Source: an uncultured Methanolobus sp.
Lineage (GTDB): Archaea > Halobacteriota > Methanosarcinia > Methanosarcinales > Methanosarcinaceae
Length of the DNA stretch: 64,000 bases
NCBI GenBank assembly: GCA_963675495.1
Contig: OY776215.1
Coordinates: 2,592,001 to 2,656,000 of the forward strand
Reading direction: 5' to 3'
Shown here: positions 17,500 to 30,089 of the stretch, one piece after another
Numbering within the stretch: position 1 is the first letter of the stretch
How the letters are laid out: the number at the start of each line of letters is the position of its first letter
Position numbers and translations under genes: made by a program
The notes under the pieces: generated by a model
What the model saw: only the letters and a program-made list of their open reading frames with translations
Database searches by the model: none
Told to the model about the DNA's origin: nothing

Positions 17500-18675
17500 A
17501 TGAGAAAAACATGCAATCCTTCAGAATTTGTGGCTGACGTCATGGGCAAGGTCCCCCCGTCGGGCATACGCCGCTATTTTGATCTTGCATCCGAGATAGA
17601 TGATGTGGTCTCTCTTGGTGTAGGTGAACCCGATTATGTTACTCCATGGCATATAAGGGAAGCGTGTATCCATTCTTTAGAATGCGGTGAAACCTCATAT
17701 ACTTCAAATTATGGTCTCATTGAACTAAGAGAAGAGCTTTCAGAACATTTTTCCACAAAGTACGGCGTTGATTATGATCCTACTTCTGAAATTCTGGTAA
17801 CTTCAGGTGTTAGTGAAGCTCTTGATGTTGCAATCCGTGCCATCACTAACCCAGGTGATGAGATTATTGTTGTCCAGCCTTCATATGTGGCCTATGTGCC
17901 TTCTGTGATGTTCGCAGGCGGTGTGCCTGTAATTGTTTCAACGAAGCTGGAGAACAATTTCAAACTGACTGCCGAGGAGCTTGAATCTGCTATCACAAAC
18001 AAGACCAAGGCCGTTATTATCAATTATCCTAATAATCCAACCGGCGCTACTATGGGTAGGAAAGACCTTGAGGCCATCGCGGATGTTGTCTGCGAACATG
18101 ACATAATGGTCATATCCGATGAGGTCTATGACTGCCTGACATACAACGGTGGACACACTTGTTTTTCTTCCCTTGAAGGTATGCGTGACAGGACCATTTT
18201 GTTGAATGGTTTTTCCAAAGCATACGCAATGACTGGCTTCAGGATGGCATATGCAATGAGCTCTCCTGAGATCATCAGTGCCATGATGTTGATACACCAG
18301 TATTCAATTCTCTGTGCTCCCATCACTGCGCAGATAGGAGCCATCGAAGCCCTCAGGAACGGCACAGATGAAATGAACCGCATGGTTCGTGATTATGACC
18401 GTCGCCGTCACCTCATCGTAAGCGGTCTGAAAAAGATCGGACTTGACTGCTTTGAGCCAAAAGGCGCATTCTACGCTTTCCCTTCTGTCAAGAACACAGG
18501 CTTAACTTCTGACCAGTTTGCAGAACGTCTCCTGAATGAACAGAAGGTCGTCACAATCCCTGGCGATGTATTCGGTGAAGCTGGCACAGGTTTCCTCAGA
18601 TGTTCCTATGCAACTTCCAGAGAGGAGATCGAGAAAGCTCTGGAGAGGATCGGGGCTTTTGTTGACGGGTTGTGA
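17500..18675 (+). CDS. Class I/II PLP-dependent aminotransferase
   Basis: LGVGEPD, YPNNPTG, SDEVY, FSKAYAMTGFR. Confidence 0.95.
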   Translation: MRKTCNPSEFVADVMGKVPPSGIRRYFDLASEIDDVVSLGVGEPDYVTPWHIREACIHSLECGETSYTSNYGLIELREELSEHFSTKYGVDYDPTSEILVTSGVSEALDVAIRAITNPGDEIIVVQPSYVAYVPSVMFAGGVPVIVSTKLENNFKLTAEELESAITNKTKAVIINYPNNPTGATMGRKDLEAIADVVCEHDIMVISDEVYDCLTYNGGHTCFSSLEGMRDRTILLNGFSKAYAMTGFRMAYAMSSPEIISAMMLIHQYSILCAPITAQIGAIEALRNGTDEMNRMVRDYDRRRHLIVSGLKKIGLDCFEPKGAFYAFPSVKNTGLTSDQFAERLLNEQKVVTIPGDVFGEAGTGFLRCSYATSREEIEKALERIGAFVDGL

Positions 18676-18748
18676 AAGGGCTTATTTTGATTCTTAATGG
18701 AGTCCACTGAATCCACTTCATCTCTAGTTATATTCTCAAAAATATACA

Positions 18749-19399
18749 TTATATGGGTTGGAAAATAATACTTTTCAGTTGCTCCATATCTTTATCAGAA
18801 AGTATTTCTTTATATAAATTATTCACAAGCCAAAGTCCACTTTCTCTTATTTTCTTTTTTGGGGAATAGTTGCCAAACCAATTTGTTGAGGAATTGCATT
18901 TACTACAAAGTGAAACAGTTGATATTAGTTTTGATTCCAAATTAAGCCTTTTTTCCTTTTCTGTGACTTCAAAAACAACAAATGAAAAATTATTTTGAAT
19001 ATATTTGCTAACTTTTTTCTCCACAGTAGCCTGCATGTTAAAATCAACAAGATGTGAATATTTTTCTTTTGCAGCTTTTGTTGTAAGATCAAGTTCCCAT
19101 TGCTTAAGGAAAGGATTATTCTCCATGTTCAAGAATGCTCTTCCAATATTCTTGCGAAAAATACTTCGATCTTTTTTCTCATTGATAAAGTGTTGTCTGA
19201 GCCTTGACCTTAACTGGTTTTCTCCTGTATGTGTGCCAACACGAACAATTCTATCATTTTCATGTCCATGTTCGCCTTTTTGAAACAGGATATAAATTCC
19301 ATTTTTCGGGATTTTACTTTCATCAAAAGGAAAATTCATTCTTTCAAGCTTATCAAACCACTGATGAAGTTTGTCACATTTCTCATTTATTGTTGACAT
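18749..19399 (-). CDS. Putative GIY-YIG-like nuclease
   Basis: NGIYILF...IVRVG...LRSRLRQH and later LESKLI match the GIY/YIG/Arg-helix/Glu layout; AT-rich. Confidence 0.55.
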   Translation of the reverse strand: MSTINEKCDKLHQWFDKLERMNFPFDESKIPKNGIYILFQKGEHGHENDRIVRVGTHTGENQLRSRLRQHFINEKKDRSIFRKNIGRAFLNMENNPFLKQWELDLTTKAAKEKYSHLVDFNMQATVEKKVSKYIQNNFSFVVFEVTEKEKRLNLESKLISTVSLCSKCNSSTNWFGNYSPKKKIRESGLWLVNNLYKEILSDKDMEQLKSIIFQPI

Positions 19400-19820
19400 G
19401 CTCTTTTAAATACTGTAATTGTTCGCCAATTCTCATACCTTGCAATGGGATCTCATAGTTGGGTATATGGGGTAGCAAAAATTTTCTGTACTTATCGCCT
19501 GCAAGAAAAACAAATTTATCGTTTTTTATGTCCGTAATCTTTCCTAGATCAGAAAGAACCTGTTTTGCCCACGTTTTGACTTCTTGTGACCTCATTTTAT
19601 TCAAAGTCTGTTCATAAGGCTCAATCTCTTCTTCCAAATCCAAAAGACCATACTTTGCAGACAAAATAAATATCCTGTCTGCAGAGATGGATTTAGCATA
19701 CTGCAAATTGTATTTGAAAAGGGTACTTACATACAAATTTTTTGCTTTTGCCTTATTGTCTAGTTTCTTACTGACACATGAAATTAATATATTCTTTTTA
19801 ATTTCCAACACCCAGCCCAT
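19383..19820 (-). CDS. DUF6884 (YaaA-related) domain protein
   Basis: LISCVSKK, AKNLYVSTLF, FILSAKYGLL, IEPYEQTL, FLAGDKY, GMRIGEQL; overlaps downstream gene by 17 nt. Confidence 0.75.
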   Translation of the reverse strand: MGWVLEIKKNILISCVSKKLDNKAKAKNLYVSTLFKYNLQYAKSISADRIFILSAKYGLLDLEEEIEPYEQTLNKMRSQEVKTWAKQVLSDLGKITDIKNDKFVFLAGDKYRKFLLPHIPNYEIPLQGMRIGEQLQYLKEHVNNK

Positions 19821-20310
19821 TTATTCCCTTAATATCGATGTCGATTAAATTTATTATCTTCCATTTAAATCAATATTATTGGTATGGGTTAAAAAGTTTA
19901 GTTTTTTATTTCGTGATCAATTGCCTCTCTCCAAACCCTTTCTCTCATAATGATGAGTCTCATAATATATCAAAGTGTAGATATGTTTATATAGTATATT
20001 TTAATATTTAGAATTGTAGTCACAGAATCTGAAGGTTCAGTGTCTGCAGAACAATTGGTGGTACGGTATGCTTTATCGGAACGCTGAATCAAAAACGGAT
20101 TTAAATGAACAGAACGTGGGCAGATTCCCTCTCTGCATTCCCTACAATATCTCTCCCCAAAAAACGCTTTACTTTTCCACGTTCTGTATTCAGCTTTCTG
20201 AACCATTTTTTAAGATTATGATGTTATTGCAATCTTTTTTGCAAATTGATTAGAAACAAGTATATCCAAACTTATATGTAAAAGACGATATATTCAGTTC
20301 ATTTGTCAGA

Positions 20311-21021
20311 TCAATAACAAAGTTTCTCCAACATTTTTCTTTCTTTTCGAATACTCTTTATCTTTGTTTCATGTTTTAAAATAGCATTTAGTTTGTTTAC
20401 GACGTCCTTAGCATCAGAACCATATATGTCAGCACCAATTTTCATGGCCCATTCAGCAGTTACTGGGGCTCCACCAACCATGGTCTTTACAGTATCTCGA
20501 ATACCAGCTTCATTTAGTTCCTTTTCGAGCATCATCTGGTTTATCATTGTAATCGTCATCAGGGCAGACGTAGCTATGACATCGGGACATATCTGCATTG
20601 CTTGTTCAACAAAAGTTTCCACAGGCACATCTACACCAAGATCGATAACATTATAGCCGTTGATATGAAGTGATGTTGCAATAATTTCTTTGCCAATGGA
20701 GTGGATATCCCCTTCTATTGTGCCAATAAGTATGGTTCCTTTTGATTTTATTCTATGAGTTCTTTCATATTTCGATGGCATTAAAACTTTGATACCGGCA
20801 TCCATTGCATCCGAAGCTGCAATTATGTGAGGCAGGAATATTTTCCCTTCATCAAACATTTCCTTTAGTTTAATGATAGCAGCGTAGTAACCATTTTTGA
20901 TAACATACTCAGGTTCAATTCCTGCATTAAGTGCTTCATATGCAACGTTCTGGGTCATGGTGTCATTGAGTTTTAGGACAGATTCCATCGCTTTTTTCGC
21001 AATAATTTCTCTAGCCAGCAC
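20311..21021 (-). CDS. Methylotrophic-type corrinoid (B12-binding) protein
   Basis: FLPHIIAASDAM cap domain, GDIHSIG (DxHxxG), DLGVDVP, SALMT, MVGGAPVT. Confidence 0.92.
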   Translation of the reverse strand: MLAREIIAKKAMESVLKLNDTMTQNVAYEALNAGIEPEYVIKNGYYAAIIKLKEMFDEGKIFLPHIIAASDAMDAGIKVLMPSKYERTHRIKSKGTILIGTIEGDIHSIGKEIIATSLHINGYNVIDLGVDVPVETFVEQAMQICPDVIATSALMTITMINQMMLEKELNEAGIRDTVKTMVGGAPVTAEWAMKIGADIYGSDAKDVVNKLNAILKHETKIKSIRKERKMLEKLCY

Positions 21022-21156
21022 TTGTAACCACTTCTTATTTGATATTCAATATTTTTACAGCATCCTATATTTAATCGGCAGTAAGTAATTGTTTTCCGTT
21101 TTTAAAATATATAAAACTATCTCATACGTGAAAAAGCAAAAAAAATAGAAAATGCT

Positions 21157-22215
21157 TTAGTATTGGTCAGCATTTTCGTTATTTTCAGAAAGGTACTCCT
21201 CGTTGAACATCTTTGCCATGAGAACTACATATGATATTAACAGGGGACCAATCACAATCCCCAGCAGTCCGAATAGGTTCAATCCGATTATCACTCCTAT
21301 AATGGACTCAAGGGGATGAATACTCCCGACTTTTTTCTGTATCAATGGCCGGAGGAAATTATCAACAGAACTAAGGAGTACACCTCCTATCAAAATGCCC
21401 AGAGCAGTAAAATAATCCTGCTGAATTAGTTGAACTATTACTGCAGGTCCCCATATGAGTGTTGCACCGACTACTGGCAGGAAGGAAAGAAGGACTGCCA
21501 CAAAGCCCCAGAGGAACGCGCCCTCAACTCCAAGTAGAAGAAATGTCACTGTGAGTATTGTTCCTTGCACAAAGGCAATAATGCCCGAGCTGATAAGTGT
21601 TGCATTAACAATGGACTTAAATTCATTTTTGAGTATCTCTGTATTCTTCCTGTTGAATGGTATTGCATTTTGGAGTTTAGCTGAGTATGTTGACCCAACT
21701 CCTACAAGAAGGTAGTACAGGAGGAAATACATTATCACAAATTCAATAAGCCTTTGTCCCAGGCTTTGAATCGCATTTAAGAGTAGAATACTAAAGAAGT
21801 TAGCAGCTGATGCAATGACTTCTGTAATTTTGTCTCTTATACTAATCTCTACAGGCAATCTTTCAAGAGGCAGTTGGCTGACATAAAGGCTTAATGAGTC
21901 TATATATTCAAGGATGGTATCCGTGTCAAACAGGATATTTTGCATCTGGAGGACCACTATTGTGATGAGTATGTATAGTGGGATCAATATTAAAATAATT
22001 GTCATGAAGATAATCATAAAAGCTGCTATATTTTTGTTAAAGCTCTTTTTGGTTGTAAGGTATGCGTATAGTGGTTTGAATACCACATACAGTATGAATG
22101 CCCCTAAAAATGCATTGATGTATGGATAAAGGGCGTAAATAAGTATGGCTGCCAGCACGCTAAGCATCAGAAGTGCCTGTGGCATCTTGCTCGACTGTTT
22201 CATTACTTCTTTCAT
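21157..22215 (-). CDS. AI-2E family transporter
   Basis: Multi-TM; LSFLPVVGA, DNFLRP, IHPL, FGLLGIVIGP. Confidence 0.9.
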   Translation of the reverse strand: MKEVMKQSSKMPQALLMLSVLAAILIYALYPYINAFLGAFILYVVFKPLYAYLTTKKSFNKNIAAFMIIFMTIILILIPLYILITIVVLQMQNILFDTDTILEYIDSLSLYVSQLPLERLPVEISIRDKITEVIASAANFFSILLLNAIQSLGQRLIEFVIMYFLLYYLLVGVGSTYSAKLQNAIPFNRKNTEILKNEFKSIVNATLISSGIIAFVQGTILTVTFLLLGVEGAFLWGFVAVLLSFLPVVGATLIWGPAVIVQLIQQDYFTALGILIGGVLLSSVDNFLRPLIQKKVGSIHPLESIIGVIIGLNLFGLLGIVIGPLLISYVVLMAKMFNEEYLSENNENADQY

Positions 22216-29408: not shown

Positions 29409-30089
29409 TTGACAATAATACCTGAAAATGAACGCTCAAGTCTCCCGTTGGATACTGATGAGATAATATATCATCCTGATATGATACGTGCAAATGAGTG
29501 GGTACTTTCTGAATATGAACCGCCTGTTAGGGAATTCTGTATATTTGTACCTTGTGCAAAGAAAAAACCCTATCATGAGAGTCCTTCTCATAAAATATTT
29601 GACAAAGTTATCTTTGGAATGCTTGAACCTGAGGATGTACATATTGTCGTTTTTGGAACATGTGGTATCACTCCCCGTGAACTGGATACTGAATATCCTT
29701 TTATGGACTATCAATTCATGCTTGGAAAATGTAATGTTGCAAAGATCAAAAGGGATTTCATTAAGATGGAAAGCCAGAGGCTAGCGCAGTATCTTGAAAA
29801 AACGCGTGACAACTATAGACATCGTATCGCTTATTGCATAGGTGATTTCAGGAAAGCTATGGAACTTGCAGTTAAGATGTCTGGCGTTGAAGTGATAATA
29901 GTTCCCAAAGAAGAAACTGTCAACGCACATGTCCAGCCGGGGAAGAAATTCATTTATGGAAGTCTTAATCAGGCAACTTATCTTCAGGACTTTTCTGATT
30001 CAATTGCAACCATTGTCGGCAAAGAGTCAAGGAATACTGTTTTAGATGATGATGGAAAAACCAATGACAATGATTGGTATTTATTATGA
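29409..30089 (+). CDS. DUF5591 domain protein (archaeosine synthase ArcS-like domain, stand-alone)
   Basis: FVPCAKKKPYHESPSH and GITPRELDTEYP resemble ArcS motifs PCSxxKPYxxSxSH and GxVPRELE. Confidence 0.75.
   Translation: MTIIPENERSSLPLDTDEIIYHPDMIRANEWVLSEYEPPVREFCIFVPCAKKKPYHESPSHKIFDKVIFGMLEPEDVHIVVFGTCGITPRELDTEYPFMDYQFMLGKCNVAKIKRDFIKMESQRLAQYLEKTRDNYRHRIAYCIGDFRKAMELAVKMSGVEVIIVPKEETVNAHVQPGKKFIYGSLNQATYLQDFSDSIATIVGKESRNTVLDDDGKTNDNDWYLL

Follow-up and report, generated by a model that had tools for sequence, protein, structure and literature searches.

A PDC-M57 gene pair inserted in a Methanolobus genome: a DUF6884 protein and a predicted GIY-YIG nuclease as a candidate restriction module

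What is the role of two small, overlapping genes that lie as an AT-rich insertion among housekeeping genes, and do they make up a new system? The question is raised by a stretch of 64,000 nucleotides (nt) from an uncultured Methanolobus sp. (contig OY776215.1, positions 2,592,001 to 2,656,000 of the forward strand; hereafter the window), in which the adjoining genes A and B (Table 1) encode a DUF6884 protein and a divergent GIY-YIG protein, respectively. An earlier note, made from the sequence alone, had drawn attention to the pair and to its motifs, all of which are present in the translations (ISCVSKK, AKNLYVSTLF, and ILSAKYGLL in A; GIYILF, RVG, LRSRLRQH, and LESKLI in B), and the 17-nt overlap that it described was found as well, with both genes on the minus strand. 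It also held that no named system has this architecture, and this claim has to be withdrawn. Protein A matches the PADLOC model PDC-M57A with E 2.8e-60 (200.6 bits, residues 8–142 on profile positions 2–136 of 138), and protein B matches PDC-M57B with E 3.2e-101 (335.3 bits, residues 5–212 on positions 2–209 of 211). By these profile matches, the window pair is a member of candidate PDC-M57 of PADLOC-DB v2.0.0, i.e., a further copy and not a new system. We hypothesize that the PDC-M57 pair is a two-part restriction module that senses modifications or lesions in DNA and serves in defence, a reading that has, in our judgement, about an even chance of being right.

Family and fold of the two proteins

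The family of protein A is given by Pfam DUF6884 (PF21818), which was matched with E 1.9e-45 (154.8 bits against a cut-off of 30). The score for YaaA/DUF328 (PF03883) was 18.7 bits (E 1.3e-3), below the cut-off of 29.6, so A is a relative of YaaA and not a member of its family. Both parts of this result agree with the earlier note, which had called the upstream protein DUF6884 and YaaA-like. By comparing 40 partners of B from many phyla in one alignment, the residues C15, K19, Y30, S32, F35, L53, S54, and A55 of A were found to be invariant, and G58 was conserved in at least 90% of the sequences. The CxxxK and LSAxxG motifs are both intact in the window protein. These two motifs were proposed as the active site of DUF6884 by the Pfam authors, according to whom a YaaA-type DNA-binding cleft is also shared with this family (PMC11701544).

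The structure of the A-type domain points in the same direction. In the model of P0046, a natural A–B fusion (pLDDT 93.9, pTM 0.79), the best solved match of this domain was E. coli YaaA (5caj; Z 9.8, root-mean-square deviation (rmsd) 2.8, 126 residues), and Foldseek gave E 2.3e-3 with a probability of 1.00 for the same pair. The second-best match was PDB 2q07 (Z 8.3, 111 residues), and all the following ones had Z of 6.5 or less. The 2q07 protein is a homologue of ArcS, since the 613-amino-acid (aa) ArcS-like protein of this genome matches it at E 7e-52, and its chain opens with a PCxxxKPYxxSxxH stretch. At the sequence level, the hhalign comparison of A with ArcS was not significant (probability 1–3%), and its register agrees. 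A weak similarity of A to DpdC models was also observed (E 1.1e-5), covering residues 19–86 of A and positions 48–114 of 312 in the profile. Searches with the single sequences of A and B against the PDB returned nothing meaningful (best E 0.3–0.7), and NCBIfam contained no match for either of them. Judged by the model, A is predicted to have a YaaA-like Rossmann-type fold with an intact pocket formed by Cys15-x3-Lys19 and LSAxxG58.

Protein B is more divergent. No Pfam family, including the classical GIY-YIG family PF01541, was matched at E ≤ 0.01, and PF01541 was found in UvrC only in this genome. Homologues of B carry the precomputed tag PF26468, which is named GIY_YIG_3 in the ESM Atlas output (Pfam 38.1). 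A profile of B searched against the PDB gave a chance PTS match (E 0.73), and PHROGs gave only a weak hint of a GIY-YIG homing endonuclease (E 0.048). The AlphaFold2 model of B, built from an alignment of 45 sequences, has a mean pLDDT of 97.6 and a pTM of 0.92. It contains the strands 35–45, 48–55, and 138–143 and the helices 63–71 and 148–163, which agrees with the GIY-YIG layout of a three-stranded sheet with flanking helices in the order beta1-beta2-alpha1-...-beta3-alpha. In addition, B has a helical insertion of about 65 residues (80–137) and a C-terminal extension (165–212).

Foldseek of the B model gave nothing at E ≤ 0.001, and its top weak matches were T4 EndoII, R.Eco29kI, and the GIY-YIG domains of UvrC. 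The VIA-align search, which is independent of Foldseek, reached Z ≥ 2 for only 15 of 48,161 chains, and at least eight of the top ten were GIY-YIG nucleases. These included T4 EndoII (Z 5.6), I-TevI (Z 5.2, 88 of 92 residues), UvrC (Z 5.2, 85 of 89 residues, rmsd 2.7), R.Eco29kI (Z 4.4), and the 5-hydroxymethylcytosine (5hmC)-specific defence nuclease PD-T4-3 (Z 4.2, 90 residues); Slx1, HIGLE, and Hpy188I were listed too. The Z scores of the model are modest singly, but the list of matches is coherent and spans whole GIY-YIG domains. A partial hhalign alignment of B with 17 UvrC domains (probability 27%, E 6.7e-4) places G34-I-Y36 on the GVY and R53-V-G55 on the YVG of UvrC, R66 on its invariant Arg, and H70 on a nearly invariant Tyr four residues further on. 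In the 45-sequence alignment, R66 is invariant, and G34, Y36, R53, G55, and H70 are each at least 90% conserved. The presumed catalytic E155, candidate for the metal-binding Glu in the helix that follows beta3, lies outside the region aligned with UvrC; it is present in six of the six local copies and invariant in 13 close relatives. Every conserved residue of the family is retained in the window protein. On the strength of its model, B is a GIY-YIG-fold protein with a variant second motif and a predicted nuclease, so the GIY-YIG assignment in the earlier note stands. Four further residues of B are worth recording. Close relatives share C8, C165, and C168 with a conservation of at least 90%, and H12 reaches this level both there and in the 45-sequence alignment; the four could form a structural zinc site that joins the N-terminal helix to the C-terminal extension.

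Coupling, insertion, and spread of the pair

Genes A and B belong together far beyond the window. A lies directly upstream of B in all five relatives that have B, in 75 of 80 loci from species-representative genomes of many phyla, and in eight of nine IMG/VR loci. The spacing between the two genes is −13 to +30 nt in 74 of the 75 A-positive loci. Two of the five misses have an A-like counterpart, in one case a fusion of B to a divergent DUF6884 domain (L077) and in the other an upstream open reading frame (ORF) with an LSAxxG-type motif (L074). In-frame A–B fusions occur in 11 of the 75 loci. Among the best 150 of the B-family representatives at 50% identity there are 47 A–B fusions, 48 B proteins alone, 28 fragments, 17 with a C-terminal extension only, and nine with another N-terminal extension. 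Pfam finds DUF6884 in 24 of the 36 long forms of the family, together with a C-terminal DUF7662 in six, parts of a PIF1 helicase in two, and TPR in one. The PIF1 helicase in some fusions points to a DNA substrate. The functional coupling proposed earlier is well supported by the adjacency and the fusions, and from the latter, contact between the separate A and B proteins is probable. In the window, the overlap of the two genes suggests that they are translationally coupled.

Two side observations concern the long forms. The C-terminal DUF7662 was seen in P0134, P0135, P0144, P0145, P0148, and P0149 and in the loci L137–L140. At least 80 aa follow B in 28 of the 47 A–B fusions, and the window protein is without DUF7662.

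The called start of A may be too early, because its homologues in the 40-sequence alignment begin about seven residues past the called ATG. GTG and TTG codons at positions 4 and 5 of A (window 19809–19820) may represent the true start, so the real gene possibly begins three to four codons downstream.

The composition of the cassette agrees with a foreign origin. GC is 0.30–0.35 across 18600–20400, compared with 0.42–0.49 in the left flank; the region to the right of the cassette (20000–21000) is also fairly AT-rich (0.32–0.40), so the dip is sharper on the left than on the right. The inserted segment has a GC of 0.317 against 0.4055 for the 2.87-Mb genome, which places it at the 2.4th percentile among genome segments of equal length (1224 bp; z = −2.27). 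Lys makes up 13.7% of A and 12.0% of B, i.e., the 99.8th and 99.4th percentiles in comparison with 1722 ORFs of at least 200 aa. The AT and Lys richness seen before is thus confirmed genome-wide. A deviation of codon usage, also to be checked, holds for one gene only: the GC content at third codon positions is deviant in B (2.4th percentile) and ordinary in A (35.5th percentile).

On one side of the inserted pair lies a conserved aminotransferase gene and on the other a gene for a corrinoid protein, in agreement with the housekeeping surroundings first described. The flanks encode a class I/II aminotransferase, an Lrp/AsnC regulator, RNase Z, and a PRS2-type AAA ATPase, and further a B12-binding corrinoid protein, an AI-2E transporter, and BrkB. 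By DNA search, the aminotransferase flank is present in 35 of 35 same-genus genomes. In two of them (G003 and G023) the site is empty: homology stops at 18701 and restarts at about 19925–19926, with about 78 bp between, so the inserted piece is about 1.2 kb long. It contains the two genes, about 47 bp downstream of them, and about 105 bp upstream. A search for repeats around the insertion gave only short chance-level ones as terminal repeats or target-site duplications, and an attC-type imperfect inverted repeat was likewise not seen in this general repeat output, which did not use a dedicated attC model; about 47 bp lie between the stop codon of B and the boundary. Neither tRNA genes nor credible Rfam matches (a single chance match, E 0.81) were found in 18000–21500. 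When the cassettes of different genomes are compared, DNA similarity does not extend beyond the ORFs. For 12 flanking ORFs scanned with PADLOC, the only matches were generic ones of the AAA+ and PLP-fold kind.

The closest relative, G001, has 92.7% DNA identity over 302 bp at the junction and 94% over the wider flank, and exactly at the site of the window cassette it carries a two-ORF insertion-sequence transposase (122 and 136 aa; L013 2903–3915). On this ground, the intergenic site seems either permissive for insertions or attractive to them. To the right of the insertion and upstream of the corrinoid-protein gene, a conserved non-coding stretch was observed (about 19926–20200). It recurs at many places per genome in same-genus genomes with 66–88% identity and matches neither tRNA genes nor any Rfam family. 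Paralogous methyltransferase-corrinoid genes may have it in common as a leader or promoter, or it may be a small repeat element. Elsewhere in the window, positions 29409–30089 (+) encode a 226-aa standalone DUF5591 protein in which PCxxxKPYxxSxxH, proposed as the catalytic motif of ArcS, is exactly preserved. This second DUF5591 copy, additional to the ArcS-like gene of the genome, matches PDB 2q07 with E 5.8e-4.

The spread of the pair is wide and patchy. B was found in three of 35 other same-genus genomes, in two of 25 other genomes of the order, and in 18 of 301 genomes and 14 of 100 genera of the phylum (counts that include G000). The B family comprises 4,470 matches at 90% clustering and 1,257 representatives at 50% clustering, and a search with an alignment of 13 sequences confirmed 427 loci among species-representative genomes. 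Homologues with 57–72% identity occur in Woesearchaeota, Pacearchaeota, Saccharibacteria and other members of the candidate phyla radiation (CPR), Bacteroidota, Chloroflexota, Planctomycetota, Desulfobacterota, Bacillus, and Marinomonas. The pair is therefore among the more widespread uncharacterised two-gene modules and crosses the boundary between archaea and bacteria. In a quick, weakly supported tree of B, at least nine changes of the bacteria/archaea label are required (mean of shuffled labels 26.7), and strongly supported branches force only one. The nearest sequences to the window B in this tree come from Methanolobus metagenome-assembled genomes (MAGs), and the Methanosarcinaceae copies stand at several places. 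The gene content of the DNA likewise points to a methanogen of the Methanosarcinaceae type. Identical B sequences were seen in L045 and L046, from MAGs labelled Desulfobacteraceae and Polyangia; they reflect either a transfer in the very recent past or an error of binning.

Mobile elements carry the pair as well. No match to B was found in 50,697 records of isolated phages. Seven distant matches lie on haloarchaeal plasmids, and some of the nine IMG/VR loci belong to elements that encode ParB and a primase-polymerase along with two serine recombinases; some lie in a true phage with a terminase. In six genomes the pair occupies six different sites, and none of the six proteins that flank it in the window was found near the pair in the five relatives.

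Decay is recurrent. A is a pseudogene in G001 (frameshifts and stop codons) and in G016 (an internal deletion of about 230 bp and a stop), whereas B in both genomes (L010 and L008, respectively) is an open frame of 216 aa, the two being sister sequences. In these two B proteins the conserved KDRSIFRKN is changed to KDDSI(F/L)(Q/R)GH, and this substitution may mark a disarmed or repurposed nuclease. Broken copies of B were detected in G322, G090, and G225 too. The pair is one horizontally mobile, dispensable unit that is often lost or decaying. Horizontal acquisition, as first proposed, is borne out by the patchy spread, the empty sites, and the low GC, and the different sites together with the occurrence in three of 35 genomes show that the pair is not part of a syntenic core genome.

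The surroundings of other copies were surveyed over three ORFs on each side in 25 of 29 eligible loci with full flanks. These 29 remained after L024 and L080 had been removed from 31 loci with full flanks, as the loci of G024 and G048 were annotated separately; the four eligible loci left out were L094, L095, L100, and L103. The context is mixed (Table 1): defence-like in Methanosarcinaceae and several bacteria, and housekeeping- or repair-like in DPANN and CPR with small genomes.

Table 1. Features of the cassette in the window, and neighbours of the pair at other loci.
Feature	Position	Strand	Description
Gene A	19383..19820	-	DUF6884 protein, 145 aa; PADLOC PDC-M57A; from ORF and hidden Markov model matches
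Gene B	18749..19399	-	Divergent GIY-YIG nuclease (predicted), 216 aa; PADLOC PDC-M57B; Pfam 38.1 PF26468 GIY_YIG_3
Overlap of A end and B start	19383..19399	-	17 nt, from ORF coordinates
Inserted segment, about 1.2 kb	18702..19925	.	Missing from the equivalent intergenic site in same-genus G003 and G023
Non-coding upstream part of insertion	19821..19925	-	AT-rich, TATA-like stretches; presumed own promoter
L027			Defence: between hsdS and hsdR, with AlbA_2/Schlafen protein
L028			Defence: GmrSD and hsdS
L030			Defence: iSTAND/EAD11
L065			Defence: large AAA_5 (McrB-like) protein and HNH
L081			Defence: DUF4062 and NB-ARC-TPR
L045, L089			Toxin-antitoxin neighbours
L047			Repair: MGMT
L049			Repair: Pyr_excise
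L050, L079			Repair: HhH-GPD
L058			Repair: UDG and MutS
L086			Repair: RadA/RadB
G024 copy			Adjoins UvrD-PD-(D/E)XK protein and two DNA methylases
G016 copy			Adjoins Mrr, HSDR_N-AAA, DUF3732, and transposase
G001 copy			Among transposases
G048 copy			Housekeeping context
G056 copy			Between RPA/RadA and OGG

Possible functions of the pair

We hypothesize that the pair works in two steps. Protein A would bind DNA and, by base flipping, bring a non-canonical (modified or damaged) base into its Cys/Lys pocket. In complex with B, or joined to it in one chain, A would then license the GIY-YIG domain to cut that DNA. It would mean that the pair is a split modification-dependent (type IV-like) restriction enzyme directed against viruses and other foreign DNA, and that no protecting methylase is needed. 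A defence role is favoured because the spread is accessory, decay is recurrent, and restriction-modification (RM), Mrr, GmrSD, or STAND genes are neighbours at some loci, and also because copies occur in mobile elements with serine recombinases and are absent from the isolated phage records. The restriction mechanism is favoured because DpdC, CMoRE/PD-T4-3, and the END nucleases provide precedents. If the pair is indeed a modification-dependent restriction system, DUF6884 would be a new sensor fold in the logic of a sensor plus a nuclease, and the family would have a biochemical role beyond DpdC.

A more specific form of this reading concerns the target. ArcS acts on 7-cyano-7-deazaguanine (preQ0) in tRNA, and its proposed catalytic motif lies in a Rossmann-like insertion (PMC5699537). 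DpdC, listed as a DUF6884 protein (PMC12235509), belongs to the Dpd restriction-modification system and needs no DpdA/B to turn preQ0-DNA into ADG-DNA in vitro (PMC10164549). That these two relatives of A act on 7-cyano-7-deazaguanine suggests, by analogy, a 7-deazaguanine target. The pocket of A might be nitrile-reactive or specific for 7-deazapurines, might capture viral bases of the 7-cyano-7-deazaguanine type, possibly covalently via Cys15, and might hand the DNA to B; we regard this version as rather unlikely. If it were true, the pair would constitute a type IV restriction system, widespread and cross-domain, that is directed against viruses with 7-deazaguanine modifications; it would reuse the fold of a tRNA- or DNA-modification enzyme in a split or fused two-domain enzyme.

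Several observations weigh against a restriction module. The PDCs are themselves predictions, i.e., 145 single- or multi-gene candidates (Payne et al., bioRxiv 10.1101/2024.01.29.577857). According to the annotation of its flanks and the PADLOC scan, the window copy stands outside any defence island, so the island setting considered in the earlier note does not apply to it. Clear defence neighbours were present at only five of the 25 surveyed loci, compared with 12 loci with housekeeping or unassigned neighbours, six with DNA-repair genes, and two with toxin-antitoxin genes. An identity of 57–72% between archaea and bacteria is unusually high for defence genes. The A-type fold was assessed on a homologue, the natural fusion P0046. 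The second motif of B has Arg (R53-V54-G55) in place of the canonical Tyr, and E155 is less than 90% conserved in the 45-sequence alignment. Finally, the DUF6884 protein YfjM of B. subtilis was enriched on DNA baits with abasic sites and RNA bases (PMC10220248, Table 1), and such an enrichment on abasic and ribonucleotide lesions fits repair (PMC10220248, PMC11701544).

Accessory DNA repair is the best of the rival explanations, and we consider it plausible though clearly less probable than not. A would recognise one specific kind of damage to the DNA of the cell itself, e.g., an abasic site, an embedded ribonucleotide, or a base altered by alkylation or oxidation, and B would nick beside it, like the GIY-YIG domain of UvrC or Slx1, opening an alternative excision pathway. 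The bait enrichment of YfjM agrees with this, and so does the Pfam authors' suggestion of a repair role for DUF6884, which is backed by an AlphaFold 3 base-flipping model; the same paper links YaaA, whose solved fold is the closest to A, with oxidative stress (PMC11701544). The high conservation of both proteins and the frequency of the pair in small DPANN and CPR genomes, in housekeeping contexts, are also as expected for repair. Repair genes lie within three ORFs at six of the 25 loci, and the G056 copy is placed between RPA/RadA and OGG, but seven repair-adjacent loci among about 30 are not clearly above chance with six neighbours per locus, by a rough estimate from general gene frequencies. 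A repair role is further disfavoured by the very patchy spread in the genus and the phylum (3/35 and 18/301 genomes), the recurrent pseudogenisation, the arrival as an AT-rich foreign insertion, and the embedding in type I RM loci (L027, L028) or next to Mrr, GmrSD, or STAND genes elsewhere. If repair is nevertheless correct, the pair would represent a new lesion-specific incision pathway, common in reduced-genome DPANN and CPR. The earlier note had left the function between defence and damaged DNA; we favour the defence reading by inference, and the damage alternative is still a live rival.

Freestanding homing endonuclease genes in phages sit between conserved genes. The pair, too, often lies between housekeeping genes that are conserved, as in L052, where the genes of the two PheRS subunits flank it, and it could be a selfish element, either a freestanding GIY-YIG homing-type endonuclease with A as its targeting part or an addiction pair with B as toxin and A as antidote. 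This explanation is improbable. The minimal insertion of 1.2 kb, which lacks an integrase, a transposase, and conserved ends, is compatible with it, as are the at least nine bacteria/archaea changes in the weakly supported tree and the presence of I-TevI (Z 5.2) among the structural matches of B. The substitution of KDRSIFRKN in B where A is dead (G001, G016) is what would be expected of a disarmed toxin, but B is still a full-length open frame there. Six genomes with six insertion sites leave no common homing target, and the enzyme-like, invariant Cys/Lys pocket of A would be needless in a mere targeting domain or antidote. Insertion at one conserved target, as expected of a freestanding homing endonuclease gene, was not observed, and all contexts of the pair in the relatives differ. 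A–B fusions are frequent, which is atypical of toxin-antitoxin pairs, and the toxin-antitoxin alternative in the earlier note is disfavoured on this ground.

In some cases, a single chain combines modification with restriction. A miniature RM pair, in which A would alter a host base as DpdC turns preQ0 into ADG and B would cut unmarked DNA, could draw on the invariant, catalytic-looking residues of A and on the role of DpdC as a DNA-modifying DUF6884 enzyme inside the Dpd system (PMC10164549, PMC12235509), but it is very improbable: no dpdA/dpdB-like or preQ0-insertion genes lie beside the cassette here or in the annotated loci, so a DpdC-type substrate for A would be missing from the DNA; with half the size of DpdC, A matches its models only over residues 19–86 (E 1e-5); and an intact B frame beside a dead A (G001, G016) would be self-destructive unless B were already inactive.

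For work on the restriction reading or its rivals, the value of the window copy is modest. It is intact, cleanly delimited, and accompanied by a known empty site, and it would make a suitable test construct.

Comparison with known systems

The closest likeness is to PDC-M57 itself. Both window proteins match its models nearly end to end, and the two genes are adjacent in the same order and on the same strand with a 17-nt overlap, the make-up of PDC-M57 being taken from the model names. The PDCs were chosen for their embedding in BREX, DISARM, or type I RM systems and were added to PADLOC, according to their authors (bioRxiv 10.1101/2024.01.29.577857), whereas the window copy is solitary in a housekeeping locus. 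In our literature search, no paper was found that names "PDC-M57" or "PF26468", and the combination of "GIY-YIG" and "YaaA" gave nothing relevant.

CMoRE/PD-T4-3 (PDB 9u75) is described as a single-chain GIY-YIG type IV restriction enzyme specific for 5hmC- and glucosylated 5hmC (5ghmC)-containing DNA (PMC12923530). It resembles the pair in that a GIY-YIG domain is combined with a separate sensor of modified bases and no methylase is needed. However, its sensor is another, C-terminal domain of the same chain, whereas here DUF6884 is the candidate sensor and stands N-terminally or in a separate gene. The window B also differs from CMoRE/PD-T4-3 in having R-V-G in place of YIG.

In the END nucleases, a phospholipase D (PLD) nuclease is fused to an inactivated EndoIII/Ogg base-sensing domain (bioRxiv 10.1101/2025.03.31.646159 = PMC12191111). 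The likeness lies in the principle: non-canonical bases are read by a fold that stems from DNA repair or modification enzymes, and a nuclease is thereby brought to hypermodified phage DNA (PMC12191111). Both END domains are unrelated to A and B, and the END sensor is reported to be catalytically dead, whereas A has an invariant Cys and Lys. The Dag glycosylases, too, act against phages whose guanines are modified (bioRxiv 10.1101/2025.10.29.685425).

YaaA is the closest solved fold to A, and in the accounts of YaaA and YfjM cited above, a pairing with a GIY-YIG nuclease is not described. With about half the length of DpdC, A is a member of neither the DpdC nor the ArcS family, and it lacks Dpd partners, as no TGT-like or DndB-like (dpdA/dpdB) neighbours were present in the annotation of the window flanks. 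What A, DpdC, and the DUF5591 domain of ArcS have in common is a Cys-x3-Lys motif that follows the first beta-strand in all three.

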